Assembly: GCA_943354525.1 (NCBI GenBank)
Contig: CALRCI010000001.1
Coordinates: forward strand, 1 to 46,923
From: Candidatus Nomurabacteria bacterium
Lineage (GTDB): Bacteria; Patescibacteriota; Minisyncoccia; Phycocordibacterales; UBA9973
DNA length: 46,923 bases
Reading direction: 5' to 3'
Part shown: positions 362 to 44,064 of the stretch, one piece after another
Layout of the letters: each line of letters begins with the position of its first letter
Numbering within the stretch: the stretch's first letter is position 1
Translations under genes and position numbers: made by a program
The notes under the pieces: generated by a model
The model's database searches: none
What the model was told of the DNA's origin: nothing
What the model saw: the letters and a program-made list of their open reading frames with translations, nothing else

Positions 362-485
362 GAACCCGTTTTGCATGAGACATTTTCTCCTGCGGCACGC
401 ATAAAATTCTGCTGAATTTTTGCTCTGGCTCGGCTACCCGCCTGCGCGAGACCTCCGGAGAAAATGTCTCATGCAAAACGGGTTC
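362..485 (-). repeat. Family-1 clamp element, copy A: 29-bp perfect arms (362-390 / 457-485) around a 66-nt conserved core (391-456)
   Basis: GAACCCGTTTTGCATGAGACATTTTCTCC and its exact reverse complement flank a core that matches the core at 30748-30813 at 55/66 positions (hand alignment, reverse complement). Confidence 0.85.
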
Positions 486-14672: not shown

Positions 14673-14744
14673 GTCCCCGTAGTTAAATGGATATAACTGC
14701 GGACTTCTAAGCCGCTATTGTAGGTTCGATTCCTACCGGGGACA
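14673..14744 (+). tRNA. tRNA-Arg (anticodon TCT)
   Basis: GTCCCCG acceptor, D arm GTTA/TAAC, anticodon loop CTTCTAA (one A:G mismatch at the base of the stem), T arm GTAGG-TTCGATT-CCTAC, CGGGGAC-A. Confidence 0.85.
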
Positions 14745-14788
14745 CCCAAAGAGAAAACGCCAACTGCTTGGCGTTTTCTCTTTGGGTG
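14743..14788 (+). terminator. 21-bp hairpin after tRNA-Arg(TCT)
   Basis: CACCCAAAGAGAAAACGCCAA-ctgc-TTGGCGTTTTCTCTTTGGGTG. The left arm starts inside the tRNA. Confidence 0.8.
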
Positions 14789-14919
14789 TCGGGCGGAGCG
14801 ATGTCGAGCTAGCAAGCGAGACCGCGAGCCGGGCGATTAGTAAATCGTGCCGAGAGGCATTCAAGAAAAATTATGAGCGACGGCGAATAATTTATTCGTG
14901 ACCACATAAATCCTATTTA

Positions 14920-30521: not shown

Positions 30522-30719
30522 ATGGCAGAAGAACACAAAAAAAGCGCGGCAGTGCAAGACCTCATGTTTCTACTCGCCGCAATCATTATTGGATTCGTCA
30601 TCTGGTTCTACACCGGCGGTCCGGCACGCTTCAACAACAAGCCGTTCATCAAGCCAGCCGAGCCAATTGATTCCGGTGAGACATACGGACCAAGCACTCC
30701 GAATACGCAATTCCAGTAG
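30522..30719 (+). CDS. hypothetical small single-TM protein (65 aa)
   Basis: ORF 10 nt after fpg. TM LMFLLAAIIIGFVIWFY. Its stop codon lies inside the left arm of the clamp element. Confidence 0.45.
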   Translation: MAEEHKKSAAVQDLMFLLAAIIIGFVIWFYTGGPARFNNKPFIKPAEPIDSGETYGPSTPNTQFQ

Positions 30720-30845
30720 CACACAAGAAAATACAGATGATTTTTTATGAGACCGCGCGGAGGCGGGTAGCCGAGCTCGAGCAAAAATTCACCAGAATTT
30801 TATGCGTGTCGATTAAAAAATCATCTGTATTTTCTTGTGTGCTAC
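30716..30845 (+). repeat. Family-1 clamp element, copy B: 32-bp perfect arms (30716-30747 / 30814-30845) around a 66-nt core (30748-30813)
   Basis: GTAGCACACAAGAAAATACAGATGATTTTTTA and its exact reverse complement. Core is TGAGACCGCGCGGAGGCGGGTAGCCGAGCTCGAGCAAAAATTCACCAGAATTTTATGCGTGTCGAT. The arms include the stop codon of the small ORF upstream and the first nt of the SpoU stop codon. Confidence 0.9.
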
Positions 30846-31324
30846 TAATCTGTCAGCGCATAGAGCATAATACCAGTGGCAACAGAAACATTGAGCGATT
30901 CTTTTACACCGCGCATCGGAATCTCCGCGATCACGTCGCACTCCCCTAAAACTTTTTGAGACAGTCCCGTGACTTCCGTGCCGAGGATGAGCGCAGTTCT
31001 TTCTGTGCTTTTCACTTTTTTATAACTGACTGAATTTGTCGATTGTTCCAGTGCAACGATTCTGTAATTTTCTTTCTTGAGTTTTCGCAACAGTGGCGCA
31101 ATAGTCTTCACATGTTCCCACACAACTGAATCTTCTGCCCCGAGGGCACATTTATGAAAATCATTTCTCTTTCTTCCAAACCGATCGAGCGGTGTCGGAG
31201 TCGTCCCGATGAGGTATATCTTCCCTACTCCGGCCGCGTCGGCCGTACGAAAAATCGCTCCGACATTGTAGACGCTGCGGATATTATCGAGCACAAGGAT
31301 GATTTTATCGTTGATTTTAGGCAT
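30845..31324 (-). CDS. SpoU/TrmH-family RNA 2'-O-methyltransferase
   Basis: SVYNVGAIFRTADAAGV (motif 1) and IPMRGVKESLNVSVATGIMLY (motif 3). Start set at ATG 31324 (MPKINDKIILV...). Confidence 0.85.
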   Translation of the reverse strand: MPKINDKIILVLDNIRSVYNVGAIFRTADAAGVGKIYLIGTTPTPLDRFGRKRNDFHKCALGAEDSVVWEHVKTIAPLLRKLKKENYRIVALEQSTNSVSYKKVKSTERTALILGTEVTGLSQKVLGECDVIAEIPMRGVKESLNVSVATGIMLYALTD

Positions 31325-34735: not shown

Positions 34736-34770
34736 CTCCCCTGTGACTTGCCCGACAAGCGCTCCAGATA

Positions 34771-34815
34771 ATCTGTCGAAAACGCCAAGGCTAAGCCTTG
34801 GCGTTTTCGACAGAT
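34771..34815 (-). terminator. 21-bp hairpin abutting the polA stop codon
   Basis: ATCTGTCGAAAACGCCAAGGC-taa-GCCTTGGCGTTTTCGACAGAT. Confidence 0.8.
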
Positions 34816-37194
34816 TTATTTAATTTCCCCGTAATGCCGTCCCCGACCGGCGTGGACTGCGAGTGGAATATCGGTTTTGATGTGAAGATATGACTCAGGC
34901 AGGACATTGACCATTGATTCGGAAACGATTTTCTCGACTTGTTCGGCAACGTTGTTTTCGACTTCGTAGACTAGTTCGTCGTGGATCTGGAGAACAAGAT
35001 GGGCTTTGTCACTGAGACTGGCCTTGGCAAGAGCTTTCTCGGCGTGAATGATGGCGAGCTTCATGATGTCAGCAGCCGTGCCTTGAAGCGGTGCATTCGT
35101 AGCCGTGCGTTCGGCAAGTGCGCGCATAAACGGTAGCGATGAACGAATCGCCGGGAATTGTCGTTTGCGTCCAAAGAGTGTCAGCGTGTAGCCATGCGTG
35201 CGTGCGAATTCCTTTGTGCCTTCGAGATAGTCTCTGATTGTCGGAAACTGCCGAAAATAATTTTCATAGAAACTCTCCGCTTCGGCGCGCGATGAGCCGA
35301 GATTTTTGCGAAGCGCATTCACGCCCATGCCGTAGATGATGCCGAAGTTAATAACTTTCGCTCTGCGGCGCATATCATGATCCACTTTGTCTTGCGGAAC
35401 ATTGAAGACAAATGCGGCGACACCGGAGTGAACGTCTTTACCATCGCGGAAAATTTCTGACAATCGTTCGTCATGCGACATGAGCGCGAGCACGCGAAGT
35501 TCGATCTGCGAGTAGTCGAGCGCGACGAGTGTGTGCCCCGGCGCGGCAATGAAGCCATCGCGGATGGCGCGGCCGAGTTCGCTCTTGATCGGAATGTTCT
35601 GGAGATTCGGATTTTGCGATGAGAAACGTCCCGTCGCCGCACCGTGCTGGGAGAATGTCGCATGCAGTCTGCCGTCAGGACCGGTCATTTCCGGAATGAC
35701 GTCAATGTACGTCGAGAGTAATTTCTGCAATTCGCGGTACTTCATAATCTCGGCGATGATCGGGTGCGCGTCTTCAAGGCTCTCGAGCGCTTCGATCTTC
35801 GTCGTATATGTTCCTGTCGCGCTCTTCTTGCCGAGCGGTTTCAGACCGAGTTTGACGAAGAGAATTTCCGACATCTGCTTCGGAGAATTGATATTGAATT
35901 CCTCACCAGCGAGACGATAAATATTTTTCGTATAGGCATCGAGCGTCTTGTGATAGTCAGTTGAAAGTGTACTAAATACTTTTTTGTCTATCAGAATCCC
36001 TGTTTCTGTCATCTTCGTCACGATCGGCATGAGCGGCGCTTCGATTTCGTCGTACACTTCCTGTAATTTTTCCGTCTTCAATTTCGCAAAAATCTCCTTG
36101 CGCGCCTCGGCAAACGTACTTTTCTTCGTGTACGTGAGAATATCTTCAAGCGTCGGCGTCGTTTGTTCCGAATCGATGAGCCAAAGCGCAACTGAAGTTT
36201 CGAGAAGTTCCCGAGGAGAAATATCTTCCGTTGGTGTTTCTTCTATTGTTTCTTCGATTTTCTTCCCGCCGAATACTGTCTGCGCGCGACCAATGAGACT
36301 CTTGAATTCAAATTCTTTGAAAAGTGCCGTGATTTTCGCCATATCAATTTCTTCTCGAAATGATTTTTCCGGAATGACGAAATTAATCGGCGCATCACGA
36401 CGAATTGTGGCAAGTGTTTTCGAGAAGAGCGCTTCCTCTTCCCCATCCTTGAGCAGATTGAAAACTCGTTCAGTGATTCCTAATTTTTTAAATTTTTCTT
36501 CGGCGCCGGCTTTCTTGAGATCTTTGTACATAGCCTCGAGCGTGCCAAATTCATTGATGAGAATCGTCGCCGTCTTCTCGCCGACTCCGGCAATGCCGAT
36601 AATATTGTCTGACGGATCGCCACGCAAGCCTTTGTAGTCCGGCAAATATTTCGGTTTGAATCCGTAGCGTGTGACGACGGCGTCTTCATCGTAGAGGACA
36701 GTATCAGTCAGGCCTTTCTTCAACGTAAAGACTTGCACTTTTTTCCCCGTAACAAGCTGGAGCGTATCCATATCGCCCGAAGCGATTATGATTTCGATAT
36801 TCTTGTCATCTTTCATTTGCTCGACGATCGTACCGAGACAGTCGTCGGCTTCGAATCCTTCCTTGTCATAAATTGGAATTGAGAACGCTTCGAAAATTCT
36901 CCGTGAGGCGATAAGTTGCGAAACCAGTGCGTCATCAATCTTCGCGCGTTTGCCTTTGTATGCTTCGTACGCCTCATGGCGAAATGTCTTCTTCGGCAAG
37001 TCATAGCACGCCGCGACATAGTCGGGTTTGAGGTCGGTCACGATCTTCATGATCATCGTCGAGAGGCCGTAGAGCGCTCCTGTCGGCTCGCCCTTAGAGT
37101 CAGTAAATTCCGGCAAGGCATGATAGGCGCGATGAATAATCGCGTGCGAATCAAGCAGAATCAGGCGTTTTTTAGCGGATTTTGGAGTTGCCAT
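34816..37194 (-). CDS. polA: DNA polymerase I (5'-3' exonuclease + polymerase, 3'-5' exonuclease region nearly absent)
   Basis: 5'-nuclease N-terminus LILLDSHAIIHRAYHA. Pol motif A LVALDYSQIELRVLA, motif B RRRAKVINFGIIYGM, motif C VLQIHDELV. 792 aa. Confidence 0.95.
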   Translation of the reverse strand: MATPKSAKKRLILLDSHAIIHRAYHALPEFTDSKGEPTGALYGLSTMIMKIVTDLKPDYVAACYDLPKKTFRHEAYEAYKGKRAKIDDALVSQLIASRRIFEAFSIPIYDKEGFEADDCLGTIVEQMKDDKNIEIIIASGDMDTLQLVTGKKVQVFTLKKGLTDTVLYDEDAVVTRYGFKPKYLPDYKGLRGDPSDNIIGIAGVGEKTATILINEFGTLEAMYKDLKKAGAEEKFKKLGITERVFNLLKDGEEEALFSKTLATIRRDAPINFVIPEKSFREEIDMAKITALFKEFEFKSLIGRAQTVFGGKKIEETIEETPTEDISPRELLETSVALWLIDSEQTTPTLEDILTYTKKSTFAEARKEIFAKLKTEKLQEVYDEIEAPLMPIVTKMTETGILIDKKVFSTLSTDYHKTLDAYTKNIYRLAGEEFNINSPKQMSEILFVKLGLKPLGKKSATGTYTTKIEALESLEDAHPIIAEIMKYRELQKLLSTYIDVIPEMTGPDGRLHATFSQHGAATGRFSSQNPNLQNIPIKSELGRAIRDGFIAAPGHTLVALDYSQIELRVLALMSHDERLSEIFRDGKDVHSGVAAFVFNVPQDKVDHDMRRRAKVINFGIIYGMGVNALRKNLGSSRAEAESFYENYFRQFPTIRDYLEGTKEFARTHGYTLTLFGRKRQFPAIRSSLPFMRALAERTATNAPLQGTAADIMKLAIIHAEKALAKASLSDKAHLVLQIHDELVYEVENNVAEQVEKIVSESMVNVLPESYLHIKTDIPLAVHAGRGRHYGEIK

Positions 37195-37651: not shown

Positions 37652-37689
37652 AAAAAGAAAAACAGCGCATATGCGCTGTTTTTCTTTTT
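37652..37689 (-). terminator. 19-bp loop-less palindrome after the 681-aa surface protein gene
   Basis: AAAAAGAAAAACAGCGCAT/ATGCGCTGTTTTTCTTTTT. Confidence 0.8.
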
Positions 37690-37694
37690 TCGTA

Positions 37695-39740
37695 TTAGTT
37701 ATAGATCGTATGCACGGAGTCGCCATTCGACTTCGTTGTCGTCGTGGTCACACTCTTGCGGCGTGAGTAGAGCTCATTGGCGAGCCAGACGAGCGCGAGA
37801 ATGATGGCGATCAGGATGAGCCAGCCGACAAGCGTCGTCGGGAAGAATCCGCCCGAGAAGAATGCGAGGCCGGCGAGATTGGAATTATTACGGCAGCTCT
37901 GCGTCGAATTGATCGCATAGGCAATCGCATCTTCCTGCGCCGTCGTCGTTGGATTCGTGAATGCCATCGTTGCCGTTGCCACGACCATGTCGTGGAGAAC
38001 TACTGACGTTCCGGCAATACCTGAGACGAAGACTTGTCCTGACTGGCCCGGTACGAGTGTGCCGATTGGTACCGTCACTGAGTTGTCAGAGTCGCCATAT
38101 GAGCCGACAGATGACTGTGTGAACGTAATACCGGTCGGAAGTGCGATACGGAGGACGACGTTACTGAGTGTTTTGTTAGAAATGTTTTTGTAATCAACTG
38201 TGTAATCTGCCGTATTAGTCGGACAAATATTCTGGTAACGATTCGCCACTGAGAGCGAGACAAAGTTCGAACCGTTGCCGCCACCGCTTGCAATGACCTG
38301 TGTCACAACAGTTGTCGTTGAAACTGCTGCTGTACGGAAGCTGACGATATCGCCGCGAAGTGTCTGGCCATTATTGGTCGCGACTGCGCGGAAATAGTAC
38401 GTCGTGTTCGGAGAAAGTCCGCTGATACCGTCATTGAAACTGAGACTCGTCGGATTGCCGAGATTCTGAGTGTTGGTCGTATTGCCAAGCGCCTGCGTCG
38501 TACCCCATTCGAAATACGATGTGACTGCGCCGCCGTTACCGCCGGCCATGAGGCCATTGAGGCGAGCAGATGTCTGGCCGATGTAGTTAGCAATCGTAGT
38601 TGCGACTGAGAACTGGCTGACTGGCGTCACAACATACGGCGTGACGTAGACATAGGTCGTACTCGTCTGACTGAGTGCTCCGTAGTTGTTGCAGTATGCC
38701 GTCAGCGTGTACGTGATCGTACCAGATGTGGTCGGTGTGATGAATTGCTGGCTCGATGCGCCGAGATTGCTCGAGTAGTAGCCATTACTGCCACTGATAG
38801 TGACATAGCTCGCGCCATTGGTGACCCAGTAGAGCGTCGTACTCGTACCTTGAGTGATTGAAGATGGAGTCGCATAGAACTGGCCGATCGTACAGACTGC
38901 TACTGGCGGCGGTACATATGAGGTACTGACAGTGACTGTCATCGGATTTGCCGCCTGACCAGTCGCACTATATGCATTGAGTGTAAACGTAGTGGTTCCG
39001 TAGATCGGACCAGTACTCTGCGTGTAGGAACTGTTCACGGGAACAGAACCGAGGTTAGTGATTGAAGCGGTCGCACAACCGGTGGTTGACCACGAGAGCG
39101 TTGTTGCAGATCCTGACGGTACGGTAGGCTGTGCAGCTACGAATGAATTGATGACACATGACTGCTGCTGTACGTTCGTACCAATGTAGAAGGAAACGAC
39201 AACTGAACCCTGATGCGACCAGCCGGGAGCGATCGTGCCGAGATTGAGGCCTGAGGCAAAAATCTCAGAACCGGACTGGCCGAGTGGCAATGCCGTCGGA
39301 GTCTGCATCTGATCCGGATACCACTTCACTGATCCGTATGAGAGGATCTGTGGAGATGAGAGATTGATCGTGCCCGAGCCGGAAGCGCTGCCACCAGACG
39401 TAGACGAGACACTGCCCGAAAACGAAGCCGTACTCATCGTGCCTGATGGCTGGTTGAGGTGCACGGTCGTACTGGCAGCATCCGTCGTGCCGGTGTTGTG
39501 ATAATAAATGCGAACGTTCACGATCTGACCTTGGTCAGCCGAAACGCTCGGTGCCCAACAGTTGTTATTCCAACCGGTTGAGTTAATGCCTGCGCCAGTC
39601 GTGAAGTTGCCGACACCGACCGTACTACAGTCATTCGCGACAGGCGAGAATGACGATGCCGCAAATGCATGCGGTGCGGCAAATCCAAGCGCGATGAGCG
39701 CAAAGATTGCCACTATTGATTTTGATAAAATTTTCTTCAT
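37695..39740 (-). CDS. large surface protein with signal peptide, Ig/FN3-like repeats and C-terminal membrane anchor (681 aa)
   Basis: Signal peptide MKKILSKSIVAIFALIALGFAAPHAFA. FN3-like unit ...LSPNTTYYFRAVATNNGQTLRGDIVSFRT. C-terminal TM LVGWLILIAIILALVWL followed by RRK. Start moved to ATG 39740 because the 18 upstream codons lie in the palindromic clamp element. Confidence 0.8.
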   Translation of the reverse strand: MKKILSKSIVAIFALIALGFAAPHAFAASSFSPVANDCSTVGVGNFTTGAGINSTGWNNNCWAPSVSADQGQIVNVRIYYHNTGTTDAASTTVHLNQPSGTMSTASFSGSVSSTSGGSASGSGTINLSSPQILSYGSVKWYPDQMQTPTALPLGQSGSEIFASGLNLGTIAPGWSHQGSVVVSFYIGTNVQQQSCVINSFVAAQPTVPSGSATTLSWSTTGCATASITNLGSVPVNSSYTQSTGPIYGTTTFTLNAYSATGQAANPMTVTVSTSYVPPPVAVCTIGQFYATPSSITQGTSTTLYWVTNGASYVTISGSNGYYSSNLGASSQQFITPTTSGTITYTLTAYCNNYGALSQTSTTYVYVTPYVVTPVSQFSVATTIANYIGQTSARLNGLMAGGNGGAVTSYFEWGTTQALGNTTNTQNLGNPTSLSFNDGISGLSPNTTYYFRAVATNNGQTLRGDIVSFRTAAVSTTTVVTQVIASGGGNGSNFVSLSVANRYQNICPTNTADYTVDYKNISNKTLSNVVLRIALPTGITFTQSSVGSYGDSDNSVTVPIGTLVPGQSGQVFVSGIAGTSVVLHDMVVATATMAFTNPTTTAQEDAIAYAINSTQSCRNNSNLAGLAFFSGGFFPTTLVGWLILIAIILALVWLANELYSRRKSVTTTTTKSNGDSVHTIYN

Positions 39741-39754
39741 ATATTTTCTTGTCT

Positions 39755-39884
39755 CGCCCCGAATTCTTTCCTGATCTGATTTTTTAATCGACACGCATAA
39801 TTTCTTGCTAGAAATTTGCTGGAGCTCGGCTACCCGCCTCCGCGCGGTCTCATAAAAAATCAGATCAGGAAAGAATTCGGGGCG
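39755..39884 (-). repeat. Family-1 clamp element, copy C: 32-bp perfect arms (39755-39786 / 39853-39884) around a 66-nt core (39787-39852)
   Basis: CGCCCCGAATTCTTTCCTGATCTGATTTTTTA and its exact reverse complement. Core reverse complement is 56/66 identical to copy B, with 4 compensatory pair swaps in the internal hairpin. Confidence 0.9.
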
Positions 39885-39942
39885 TTAACTATTAATAAAC
39901 ATCTATAAATCTTCAATCACTAATTAAAGACTTAATAAATGC

Positions 39943-39974
39943 GTGAAGGGCTGTTTGGTAACAGTTCCCTTCAC
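39943..39974 (-). terminator. hairpin after the 578-aa secreted protein gene
   Basis: GTGAAGGGCTGTT-tggt-AACAG(tt)CCCTTCAC. Confidence 0.6.
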
Positions 39975-39999
39975 ACAGAAAATTAACATTACTTATTAC

Positions 40000-41736
40000 T
40001 TACTTGTGACTTACAGACATACCGCCTTTGATACCGCCAGTTTGCATTTTTGTGCCTACGTTGGAGAGTATTGAATTGTTGGTGTTATATGTCCCGAGGT
40101 GCGATTGCATCGGATACGAGGTGTTTGCGGTGTTGGATGTATTCCAATACGTTATATTGCCCGTCTTCTGCGAGGGTGCTTGTGACCAGGTTTGTTTGGG
40201 AGCGACATTCTGAGTGGAAGCCGTAGCAGTGCTCCATGAAGGATTCGTTCCTTTTGAACTTGTGGTCTGTTGATAGCTGATGTGTGGTTGCGGTGTACTG
40301 GTAGTTGCGGCAGATGCTTTTGTCGTAGTTGCGAGCTGTGTCGTATGCGAAGCACTGATGCCGTTCTGTGTTTGTGTGCCAGCAACTCCTTTGATTCCCA
40401 TCGTATTTGAGGAAGTTGGATTAGTCGGTGGCACTTTCGTGTAAACCGAATTCGCATTTGTCGAAGCCATCGACTGCGACGAATACTTTGTCTGCGTCTG
40501 TGCACCTCCTTTTACTGCAGTAGTAGCTACAGGAATCGTATTGCCTGGCGGCGTTTTGGCATAAATTGAACTATTAGTAGTAGCCATATTCGTACTGCCT
40601 GCCATGCGATGACCGCCTGTACCAGCTGGTCCTTGATCCCCGTTTCCGAGAACACCAGTTCCATTGCCGTTATAGGTGATATCACCATGACCCGGTGCAG
40701 GGGCTGGGCCTCCTGACTGCGGATTTACTGATGGCAAATACGTTACAACAAAGTTGTTAAATGAATTCGTATTGAATGAATTCACATTATTCGTGGTGTT
40801 GTAGTAATTATTCACGACATTCTGCACTTGCGGAGTGTTGTAGTAACCGCACTGCTGCTGGCCATACGAGTTCGTGAATATGAAGCTGAATTGGATGCAC
40901 GCTTGCGCAAGCAACCCACAGAGCGGTGATCCGTACTGTGGCATACAATAGCCTTGATATTGCTGTGGCTGGTCATAAATGACCGGCTGAGAACAATACT
41001 GCTGGCGATTCTGGTCATAATAACCATAGTCAGTGCCTTCAGGTGCGGATTGCGTATACTCCGGATGGTTATCAAGATGATTATCAATATGAATATTGAT
41101 GTCACCATTGCCATTCGTGTGAATTGTCGTATCAGCTCCGTTATACGTAATCGTCTGATTTTGTTTCGCAGTCGATGGTGACGTAGTAATCGGAATCGGC
41201 GTGCGGTCAGCAATCTGATTCACGCAGCCTTTCTTAGCAAGCACGGCTTTTTGGCCGTTTGATGCAGTGTACACGAGGCACAGTGTGTTGAAACCTGATG
41301 GTGAAAGGTAAAAACCATACTTTTGATTGACCTTATCCCATCCGAAGATAGCATAGTGTCCTACATCAGAGCATGGCGGGTACTCCCACTTGGATGCGCG
41401 ATATTTTGCAATTATCGTCTGCGCATCAACAGTTGCTTCACCAAGTCGTACAGCATCATAACCATTCCATATCAATGCGGCCTGTTGGTTATAATTTTCA
41501 CTAGTTACTCCCGGCGTTGCGCCTGCGAAGTCTCCATTTGCCATGTGGTCGGCGAATGCGTCTCCAGTAGCACCGGCAACGCATGGAAAATTACAATCTT
41601 GCCAGATAGGATTAAGTTCTTTTGAGTTCTGGTGCAGAGCATCATTGTCAACCCATTGCAGTGTTTGAGAGTGTGCAGTGTTTGTAATAAGTAATGTTGT
41701 CAAAGAGGCGAGTAAAATCGTTAAATAATTTTTCAT
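40000..41736 (-). CDS. secreted protein with Q/N/Y-rich and S/T-rich low-complexity C-terminal half (578 aa)
   Basis: Signal peptide MKNYLTILLASLTTLLITNTAHSQ. Folded-looking N-terminal ~190 aa, then a Q/N/Y-rich segment (YYDQNRQQYCSQPVIYDQPQQYQGYC...NNYYNTTNNVNSFNTNSFNN) and repeated T/S-rich units. Confidence 0.8.
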   Translation of the reverse strand: MKNYLTILLASLTTLLITNTAHSQTLQWVDNDALHQNSKELNPIWQDCNFPCVAGATGDAFADHMANGDFAGATPGVTSENYNQQAALIWNGYDAVRLGEATVDAQTIIAKYRASKWEYPPCSDVGHYAIFGWDKVNQKYGFYLSPSGFNTLCLVYTASNGQKAVLAKKGCVNQIADRTPIPITTSPSTAKQNQTITYNGADTTIHTNGNGDINIHIDNHLDNHPEYTQSAPEGTDYGYYDQNRQQYCSQPVIYDQPQQYQGYCMPQYGSPLCGLLAQACIQFSFIFTNSYGQQQCGYYNTPQVQNVVNNYYNTTNNVNSFNTNSFNNFVVTYLPSVNPQSGGPAPAPGHGDITYNGNGTGVLGNGDQGPAGTGGHRMAGSTNMATTNSSIYAKTPPGNTIPVATTAVKGGAQTQTKYSSQSMASTNANSVYTKVPPTNPTSSNTMGIKGVAGTQTQNGISASHTTQLATTTKASAATTSTPQPHISYQQTTSSKGTNPSWSTATASTQNVAPKQTWSQAPSQKTGNITYWNTSNTANTSYPMQSHLGTYNTNNSILSNVGTKMQTGGIKGGMSVSHK

Positions 41737-41857
41737 GGCGTTTAAATTTGTTTTTTATTCGGTGATAGATTTTTTTATAGTGTATCATAATTAATCAGTA
41801 TTGTCAAGGTATTTTGGCGATTGCCTATGGCTAAAATAGGCTATACTGTAAGGACAT

Positions 41858-43558: not shown

Positions 43559-43582
43559 AAAATCCCCTCTAGGGGATTTTTT
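43557..43582 (+). terminator. 12-bp hairpin plus T-run after pilB
   Basis: AAAAAATCCCCT-ct-AGGGGATTTTTT. Confidence 0.8.
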
Positions 43583-43588
43583 GGTTTC

Positions 43589-43752
43589 GCCATCCTAAAA
43601 ATTCTTTCTTAAATTTTGTTTTTAAGATCGCAACGATTCTGTATGCGTCTTTTGTAATTTCCGTGCAAGACTTGAACCATTCGAAAAATGAATGGATCGT
43701 GAGGTTGCTCGGGCTCATTAAAAAAAATTTAAGAAAGAATTTTTAGGATGGC
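43589..43752 (+). repeat. Family-2 clamp element, copy 2: 29-bp perfect arms (43589-43617 / 43724-43752), a few extra imperfect pairs, and a ~92-nt core (43626-43717)
   Basis: GCCATCCTAAAAATTCTTTCTTAAATTTT and its exact reverse complement. The core shares the blocks TCGCAACGAT.CTGTAT.CGT, TTCCGTGCAAGACT and AGGTTGCTCGG.CTCA with copy 1. Confidence 0.85.
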
Positions 43753-44064
43753 TCAGGCAAAATAAAAAAGCATAAATCTCCAAACAATCCTTATGGCAAT
43801 AGATGTCATAAGTAACACAATCTTAAAGGATGGCCCCAGCGAACTAATTAAAGAAGCCAAAACGTCCTTTGCGAAGGTATATAACGGAACCGCTGATTGC
43901 TTAGAGATTCATGCTCTCTTCTCGTTGAATCTCAGTATATATTAAAAAATGTACTTCGCTTCCGGCGAAGTGGTATACTCTGGGCATATCGTGTGTATAA
44001 ACCTGTTCTGGGAAGAGCATAGCATAGATGCTAAAATAAGTCAATAGCACCAAGCTCGTACGCC

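Follow-up and report, generated by a model that had tools for sequence, protein, structure and literature searches.

In the genome of a Candidatus Nomurabacteria bacterium, the gene for a surface protein is preceded by a long palindrome that ends only 14 nt from its start codon, which raises the question of whether this element controls the expression of the gene or is a repeat that happens to lie in front of it. The window analysed here is the whole stretch of 46,923 nt that contains the locus, and the palindrome (39755-39884) is copy C of the family-1 clamp elements, of which copies A and B lie in the same window. The inverted repeat described earlier was confirmed, with fully complementary arms that enclose 66 nt (Table 1). 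The initial annotation had placed a 32-bp stem 14 nt ahead of the start codon, and both figures hold, the arms being perfect and the gap measuring 39741-39754. The arm sequence is present at two sites only in the window, which are the two arms themselves, and has zero matches in shuffled sequence. The minus-strand RNA of copy C has a predicted folding energy of -81.4 kcal/mol (z = -12.3 versus shuffles), and its core forms two hairpins, P2 (CGG-GUAG-CCG) and P3 (AAUUUCU-AGCA-AGAAAUU). In a fold of 316 nt the clamp forms fully, while the 14-nt A-rich leader and the AUG are unpaired in the centroid structure, so that occlusion of the start by copy C is not predicted. This leader resembles the final leader bases of some homologues, such as ...aagaaaaaatatATG at locus L053. 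With regard to termination, copy C is not the G+C-rich hairpin followed by a U-tract that defines an intrinsic terminator, since its stem is followed by AGACAAGAAAAUAU, and a terminator scan of 39600-40100 gave no call.

The start of the gene had been obscured by the repeat. The list of open reading frames contains an entry at 37695-39794 with a GTG start, whereas translation from ATG 39740-39738 gives a protein that begins with MKKILSKSIVAIFALIALGFAAPHAFA... and ends in a C-terminal membrane anchor. Homologues in other Paceibacterota genomes begin at the equivalent methionine (MKKxIIS...), and thus the 18 codons upstream of ATG 39740 are not coding. The proposal of a signal peptide starting at ATG 39740 is therefore in agreement with both the translation and the homologue starts. 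Two details had to be corrected: the longer frame had been said to begin inside the left arm, but it runs through this arm and starts in the core, where GTG 39794-39792 sits 8 nt past the inner end of the arm, and the product that had been described as giant has 681 residues. The homologues, with up to 49% identity, are found in Paceibacterota/Parcubacteria MAGs; no close relative of this genome is present in the protein collection, in which the protein cluster has one member and the next matches are at most 49% identical. For annotation, the gene start should be set at ATG 39740, and the 18-codon extension is an artefact of the repeat.

The absence of a TAnnnT-N6-ATG promoter before this gene had also been noted earlier, and indeed no TAnnnT lies 6 nt ahead of ATG 39740. 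Such hexamers are depleted on the gene strand, with 2 found against 7.7 expected in the 262 nt upstream of the ATG (39741-40002), and both fall just past the stop of the gene for a 578-residue protein upstream. A sigma-70 scan of the gene strand found no site between this upstream gene and the ATG, and from 39978 to the ATG the strand contains neither a sigma-70 nor a TAnnnT site. Since no promoter lies between the element and the ATG, transcription of the surface-protein gene must pass through the element. Read-through transcripts would probably come from the canonical promoter of the gene for the 578-residue protein. A terminator-like hairpin follows that gene; it forms in the 316-nt fold and is not called by a simple terminator scan. 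One of the two TAnnnT hexamers, at the foot of this hairpin, belongs to a candidate extended -10 (TGtTAATTT) from which transcription might begin independently. We regard this box as a lead only: it is devoid of a -35, and around 0.4 chance matches are expected by our own estimate. Whichever promoter is used, the clamp would be part of the leader of the surface-protein mRNA, with its core in the sense orientation, the one that gives the best fold.

A perfect duplex of 32 bp is a textbook substrate of RNase III. This enzyme is encoded in the genome (C4:24031-24426; PF14622 match, 129 bits), and the stem of copy C is an uninterrupted duplex of the length, at least about two helical turns, that characterises RNase III stems. 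Given the duplex and the presence of the enzyme, cleavage would be the likeliest molecular consequence of transcription through the element. The earlier suggestion that the stem acts as a strong processing or occlusion signal is thus plausible with respect to processing, while its occlusion part is not borne out by the predicted fold, in which the leader and AUG are unpaired.

Table 1. Features of the surface-protein locus and family-1 clamp copies in the window.
Feature	Coordinates	Strand	Remarks
Family-1 copy A	362..485	-	Subtype b
Family-1 copy B	30715..30846	+	Subtype a; core 94% identical to that of copy C, outer arms unrelated
Bidirectional terminator palindrome	37652..37689	.	Closes the surface-protein transcription unit; 19-nt arms, loop 0, A-run/T-run
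Surface-protein gene	37695..39740	-	681 aa; Sec signal peptide, weak DUF11 match, C-terminal TM anchor
A-rich leader AGACAAGAAAAUAU	39741..39754	-	14 nt, from stem foot to AUG; read from the sequence
Gene-proximal arm, copy C	39755..39786	-	3' arm on the minus (sense) strand; complements 39853-39884, 32/32
Three-way-junction core, copy C	39787..39852	-	Conserved, 66 nt, subtype a; sense strand is the minus strand
Gene-distal arm, copy C	39853..39884	-	5' arm on the minus strand; 32/32 complementarity
Terminator-like hairpin	39940..39977	-	After the 578-aa gene, followed by UUUAUU; inverted repeat I3, 11-nt arms, 91% complementary
Candidate extended -10 TGtTAATTT	39980..39988	-	Inferred; just past the 578-aa gene stop, at the foot of hairpin 39940-39977
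578-aa gene	40000..41736	-	Upstream, co-directional; secreted low-complexity protein
Promoter of the 578-aa gene	41779..41807	-	Canonical: TTGACA 41807-41802, 17-nt spacer, TGaTACACT, -10 at 41784-41779

The element is not restricted to this locus. A covariance model built from 12 copies, which matches copy C at C1:39778-39861 on the minus strand with 99.9 bits, identifies 33 copies in the host genome (G000; 564 kb, 51 contigs, 48% G+C). Among relatives from the same family and order, copies are present in 44 of 61 genera, with 1-19 copies each, and missing from the remaining 17 genomes, so that copy numbers range from 0 to 33 overall; a pattern scan of GTDB genomes gave further matches in MAGs of 'Candidatus Paceibacterota'. 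No description of the clamp family was found in the literature searched. A search of the window against Rfam 15 at the gathering threshold returned tRNAs only, and an E-value search of 39700-40000 returned only spurious matches to miRNA-precursor hairpins, far below threshold. The window also contains a second family of the same architecture (1992-2147 and 43579-43762). Elsewhere in the genome, further long-armed perfect hairpins with arms of 26-34 nt and interiors of 55-93 nt give no match to the family-1 model (C31:3270-3392, C39:4388-4503, C39:4519-4630, C4:21700-21818, C3:24392-24546, C15:9597-9742 and C16:7328-7464); they probably represent further clamp families, among them family 2.

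All 33 copies of this genome are intergenic, and 23 of them lie between co-directional genes. Across all genomes, the 95 co-directional copies have a median distance of 18 nt from the upstream stop, and 67 of them are nearer to this stop compared with 28 that are nearer to the next start (p = 8e-5). Copy C is atypical in this respect, as it lies 115 nt past the stop of the upstream gene and close to a start. Nonetheless, 19 of the 95 are within 20 nt of the next (naive) start, and start-proximal copies are found ahead of nusA (12 nt), infB (10 nt) and a gene for an FtsQ-like protein (11 nt). The neighbours are unrelated to one another and include nusA, infB, dnaG, recG, pilC and rplY. Because essential genes (infB, nusA, dnaG) follow copies at 10-30 nt, which leaves little room for a promoter, transcription must run through the elements, which excludes them as efficient terminators. 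With respect to co-directional flanking genes, the core strand is sense in 13 and antisense in 10 copies of this genome, compared with 19 sense and 53 antisense in the relatives (53/72, p = 8e-5). The junction between rpoC and dnaG, which is syntenic across the family, illustrates how sporadic the element is: a clamp is present in 2 of 30 loci (29 related genera and this genome), the two copies, in G000 and G011, have opposite orientations and unrelated arms, and in the other 28 genera the junction consists of a short spacer or holds a simple hairpin of 10-12 bp. Such a pattern is typical of a repeat that is mobile or is often gained and lost.

A comparison of the intergenic region in related genomes, which had been proposed as a check, speaks against a tie to the surface-protein gene. 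No clamp lies ahead of the gene at any of 32 homologous loci from metagenomes (33-50% identity), and the three clamp-like matches in the homologue contigs are 3.3 kb upstream of, or downstream of, the gene. Where enough upstream sequence is available, the homologues mostly have canonical TTGACA-N17-TATAAT promoters. At six of these loci (L042, L043, L046, L047, L065 and L068), the leader downstream of the promoter contains a conserved GTCGAAWTTAGAA motif, which coincides with the transcription start or lies close to it. A gene-specific cis-regulatory leader would be expected beside one gene family and in one orientation, whereas clamps have unrelated neighbours and mixed orientations. Taken together, the 33 copies, the occurrence in 44 of 61 genera, the unrelated neighbours and the absence from all 32 homologous loci mark copy C as generic, and nothing ties the element functionally to this gene. 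Copy C is therefore probably a transcribed passenger in the leader and not a switch that evolved for the surface-protein gene. Of the earlier idea that the element, or read-through across it, controls the gene, transcription across the element is retained, while a control device of this gene is not supported, in view of the 33 copies and their unrelated neighbours.

The conserved part of the family is the central core of 63-66 nt, and the outer arms are locus-specific. In this genome, only around 9 bp adjoining the core are common to the family-1 copies, and the outer ~23 nt of the gene-proximal arm of copy C are unrelated to the arms of other copies. Copy B and the copy on C10 have identical 66-nt cores, yet their outer arms are no more alike than shuffled sequence, and a comparison of outer arms over 55 pairs gave a mean z of 0.4 versus shuffles. 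One copy (C4:21005) has the inner repeat of 8-9 bp only and is devoid of outer arms. Conversely, whole hairpins with their arms have been duplicated at different loci, as seen for C49, which matches C1:55830, and for copies of G020 and G023. The cores themselves are mosaic: in a comparison of copies 362-485, 30715-30846 and 39755-39884 with ten from elsewhere in the genome, the P3 variants aaaattc-acca-gaatttt and aatttct-agca-agaaatt are each found in all three edge subtypes (a, b and c). Such mosaicism would imply recombination or gene conversion between dispersed copies, which may homogenise the cores and leave the arms free to diverge. Perfect inverted repeats with arms of at least 14 nt number around 150 in this genome, of which ~110 are simple hairpins, REP-like families included, and some of the simple hairpins have private extensions past a shared REP-like core; the raw count of inverted repeats is 224 versus 24 in a shuffle, both figures including trivial short palindromes. 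The outer arms of family 1 are unlike terminator stems. A role of the arms as guides or spacers was considered and set aside as unsupported, as they have no genome match beyond chance except for the C49/C1:55830 pair, and two arms compared with IMG/VR gave no exact match. Two clamps at C1:54380-54500 and C1:55830-55948, 1.4 kb apart and inverted, have flanks that are ~97% and cores that are 97% identical; their arms differ at 8 of 29 positions, with each change compensated. The first of the two is nested in another imperfect palindrome of ~33 nt (GCCCAGAGCGAGAAAATATGGGGCAAATTCTCA...).

The structure of the core is conserved. In 111 copies from the relatives, 97.3% of the cells are paired and changes on both sides are seen in 27 of 28 pairs, with a covariation score of 0.79 compared with 0.20 in shuffled and at most 0.14 in slid alignments, all these values being obtained from an alignment fitted to the model. 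The mismatches are strongly asymmetric. The closing stems of 143 copies contain 53 G:T, 6 A:C and 33 other mismatches, their part outside the model contains 11 G:T, no A:C and 10 others, and the core helices contain 73 G-U compared with 6 A-C, the asymmetries of closing stems and core all being highly significant. An excess of this kind indicates selection on one of the strands for folding in single-stranded form. In the relatives, 53 of 72 copies have this strand antisense to their neighbours (10 of 23 here); folding within the host mRNA is therefore not the target of selection. Strand-specific folding is compatible with a single-stranded DNA intermediate (HUH/Y1-type) and equally with an RNA. 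The idea that the core often inverts between its arms was rejected, since the 11:0 ratio of G:T to A:C in the outer arms suggests that flipping is rare relative to mismatch turnover. On the antisense strand, a TAnnnT is present at a conserved internal place in 83 of 123 copies. It was considered as an internal outward promoter but is not supported in this role, as the TGn extension is never present and the box is no commoner in the driving orientation (32/52 vs 19/29); in copy C, the internal TAnnnT points away from the surface-protein gene.

The reading that we consider probable overall is that of a dispersed hairpin repeat that is transcribed through and has generic side-effects on the gene. 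The clamp would be a multi-copy repeat of the Paceibacterota (CPR), composed of a three-way-junction core of ~65 nt and a long, usually perfect and partly private stem. Transcription of the surface-protein gene would cross copy C, starting at the candidate -10 at 39980-39988 or reading through from the TTGACA-17-TACACT promoter at 41.8 kb. The 32-bp duplex may then be cut by RNase III or act as a generic intercistronic hairpin. In either event the two cistrons would become uncoupled, and the element would determine where the downstream mRNA begins and how stable it is, much like the REP/BIME hairpins of enterobacterial operons. Any effect on the surface-protein gene would be incidental to the presence of a repeat that is selfish or generic.

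Four other readings deserve consideration, of which the most direct is that the element evolved to control the surface-protein gene, for example as a processing site or by occlusion of the ribosome-binding region. It draws on the distance of 14 nt from the AUG, unusually short for the family, on the absence of a promoter of the gene's own by the ATG and on the high stability of the hairpin. We nevertheless regard it as very improbable: a core of 94-100% identity is found beside unrelated genes in both orientations, the 32 homologous genes have no such element ahead of them, the leader and AUG are predicted to be unpaired, and the start-proximal copies elsewhere show that its position is not unique. 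A second reading concerns the promoter and leaves the nature of the repeat aside. If the extended -10 at 39980-39988 is the gene's own promoter, the clamp is part of a 5' UTR of ~230 nt rather than of an operon spacer. The box has the same TGnTAnnnT form as that at 41779-41787 and is one of only two TAnnnT in 262 nt, and the terminator-like hairpin at 39940-39977 would limit read-through; on the other hand, it has no -35, chance could provide such a match, and a simple promoter scan of the gene strand is empty. This arrangement is possible, although we would not favour it.

The remaining two readings concern the family as a whole. The clamp may serve the host as a structured RNA, for example as a small RNA or protein-binding module that RNase III frees from transcripts by cutting the long stem, with copy C as one gene or processing module of the set. 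Deep conservation of the three-way junction across an order, with strong covariation that tolerates G-U pairs, looks more like a functional RNA than like junk, and the tolerance of G-U on one strand only (73:6 and 53:6), the long perfect duplexes that suit the encoded RNase III and the persistence of the family in streamlined genomes of 0.5-0.9 Mb point the same way. Conversely, the folding strand is mostly antisense to co-directional neighbours in the relatives, no conserved promoter is found at a fixed distance upstream, the element is lacking in 17 of 61 related genomes, varies between 0 and 33 copies and is sporadic at rpoC-dnaG, and Rfam gives no match; on balance we find this reading unlikely. 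Alternatively, the stem may not belong to the element, a short mobile core with ~9 bp having been inserted at the apex of a palindrome already present in the spacer, or the arms having been built later from the local flank by template switching. The decoupling of outer arms from nearly identical cores, the armless copy at C4:21005, the ~150 perfect inverted repeats of the genome, some of them with private extensions, and the simple 10-12-bp hairpins of relatives at rpoC-dnaG, where this genome has a clamp, are all consistent with this. It is made rather unlikely by the duplication of whole hairpins with their arms (C49/C1:55830; G020 and G023), by the difference between family-1 outer arms and terminator stems, and by the mosaic cores, as old arms could diverge while gene conversion maintains the similarity of the cores. 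A more speculative proposal, which we hold to be quite unlikely, is that the clamp is a strand-specific functional nucleic acid, either a structured RNA whose conserved three-way junction is displayed on a locus-private perfect duplex, or released from it by RNase III, or a single-stranded DNA replicator that rebuilds one arm from the other. The RNA version, if true, would represent a bacterial counterpart of hairpin-embedded small RNAs, punctuating operons in CPR bacteria with leaderless mRNAs, and copy C would define where the surface-protein mRNA begins as well as its output; in the replicator version, rebuilding of the arm at each move would explain why arms are perfect but private.

Returning to the dispersed, transcribed-through repeat, the surface-protein gene is probably expressed through a hairpin of 130 nt. 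The clamp family is a widespread and uncatalogued repeat of streamlined CPR genomes, conserved in structure and not represented in Rfam 15, and it combines unusual traits: arms that are perfect yet private to each locus, mosaic cores, and a strand-specific tolerance of G:T on a strand that is mostly antisense to its neighbours. The strand-specific mismatch spectrum, the decoupling of arms from cores and the mosaic cores appear to be new here. An answer as to whether RNA or single-stranded DNA is the folding molecule would clarify how mobile hairpins are tolerated or exploited in tiny genomes, and would also benefit gene calling in CPR MAGs.

Several known systems share part of these traits. 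REPs are palindromes of 20-40 bp whose sequence is conserved and which bear a GTAG or CGTC tag at one end; in a REPIN, a short spacer separates two of them in inverted orientation (PMC3733652, PMC3337134). Clamps are likewise extragenic, multi-copy and hairpin-forming, lie past stop codons (all 33 copies intergenic; median 18 nt after the stop) and within operons, and persist in the lineage; their strand-specific folding would suit a Y1 transposase, and RAYT-like genes are present. They differ in that the conserved part is a central three-way junction, with private arms and without a terminal tag. Correia elements, also known as targets of RNase III, are cut by this enzyme and alter the expression of their neighbours. 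With Correia/NEMIS in Neisseria, ERIC/IRU in enterobacteria and RPE in Rickettsia, clamps share the form of folding repeats of 100-150 bp that are co-transcribed and sporadic between relatives. However, Correia, ERIC and RPE have terminal inverted repeats common to all copies, and Correia also a TA duplication, while clamp arms are not shared in this genome. MITEs, too, are dispersed and present or absent between relatives, as clamps are (0-33 copies; 2 of 30 loci at rpoC-dnaG), but the shared terminal inverted repeats of MITEs are lacking in this genome, although some relatives (G020, G023) share whole arms, and no autonomous IS related to the clamp was identified. The RNase III processing stems of rRNA and some sRNAs also place a long perfect duplex around a conserved structured RNA, in genomes that encode the enzyme. 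Clamp copies, in contrast, occur in both orientations to transcription, and their cleavage is a prediction. In IS200/IS605 ends and integron attC sites, one DNA strand is selected to fold and G:T is tolerated on that strand, as in clamps, but the latter have no adjacent transposase or integrase, and a central junction with a variable stem is unlike either.

With regard to mobility, no transposase tied to the clamp was found, and a related-locus search with PolA among the contigs of the genome returned nothing. A consistent target-site duplication of fixed length was not seen in the flanks; abutting direct repeats of 2-3 nt and 6 nt are in slight excess over controls, partly owing to a GAGCGA-like motif on both flanks. 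This motif (GAGCGA / GGAGCGAA-like) lies on both sides in direct orientation in many d-type copies of G000 (C37:1645-1749, C7:15127-15230 and C41:2876-2954), and also flanks hairpins of the relatives L016, L024, L029, L033, L035 and L039; it may represent a favoured target, a short duplication or sequence that belongs to the element itself. Two RAYT-like HUH/Y1 ORFs with HUH and Tyr motifs are encoded in the genome (C8:7708-8418 and C21:4616-5377), and PF01797 (RAYT-like) matches are found in 32 of the 61 related genera. Both genes are flanked by other, simple hairpin families and not by clamps, so that no cognate RAYT flanked by clamp copies was found. Across the 61 genomes, clamps and RAYT-like genes co-occur weakly, with an odds ratio of 3.8 (p = 0.04, uncorrected for phylogeny). 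A Y1/RAYT enzyme as the mobilising activity was rejected in view of this weak association and of the other hairpin families that flank these genes. No link of RAYT or REPIN to Patescibacteria was found in the literature searched. One of the RAYT-like ORFs (HUH NHFHLL, Tyr YIHLNP) has the hairpin CTGTGGAAAACGCCAAGGC-gta-GCCTTGGCGTTTTCCACAG on either side, a sequence with at least 15 copies genome-wide, among them two related copies in the window (14741-14790 and 34770-34816), while the second adjoins a CACCCTACAGGCCGGG...CCCGGCCTGTAGGGTG hairpin family. Together with their flanking hairpins, these ORFs form classical-looking REP-RAYT pairs in a CPR genome.
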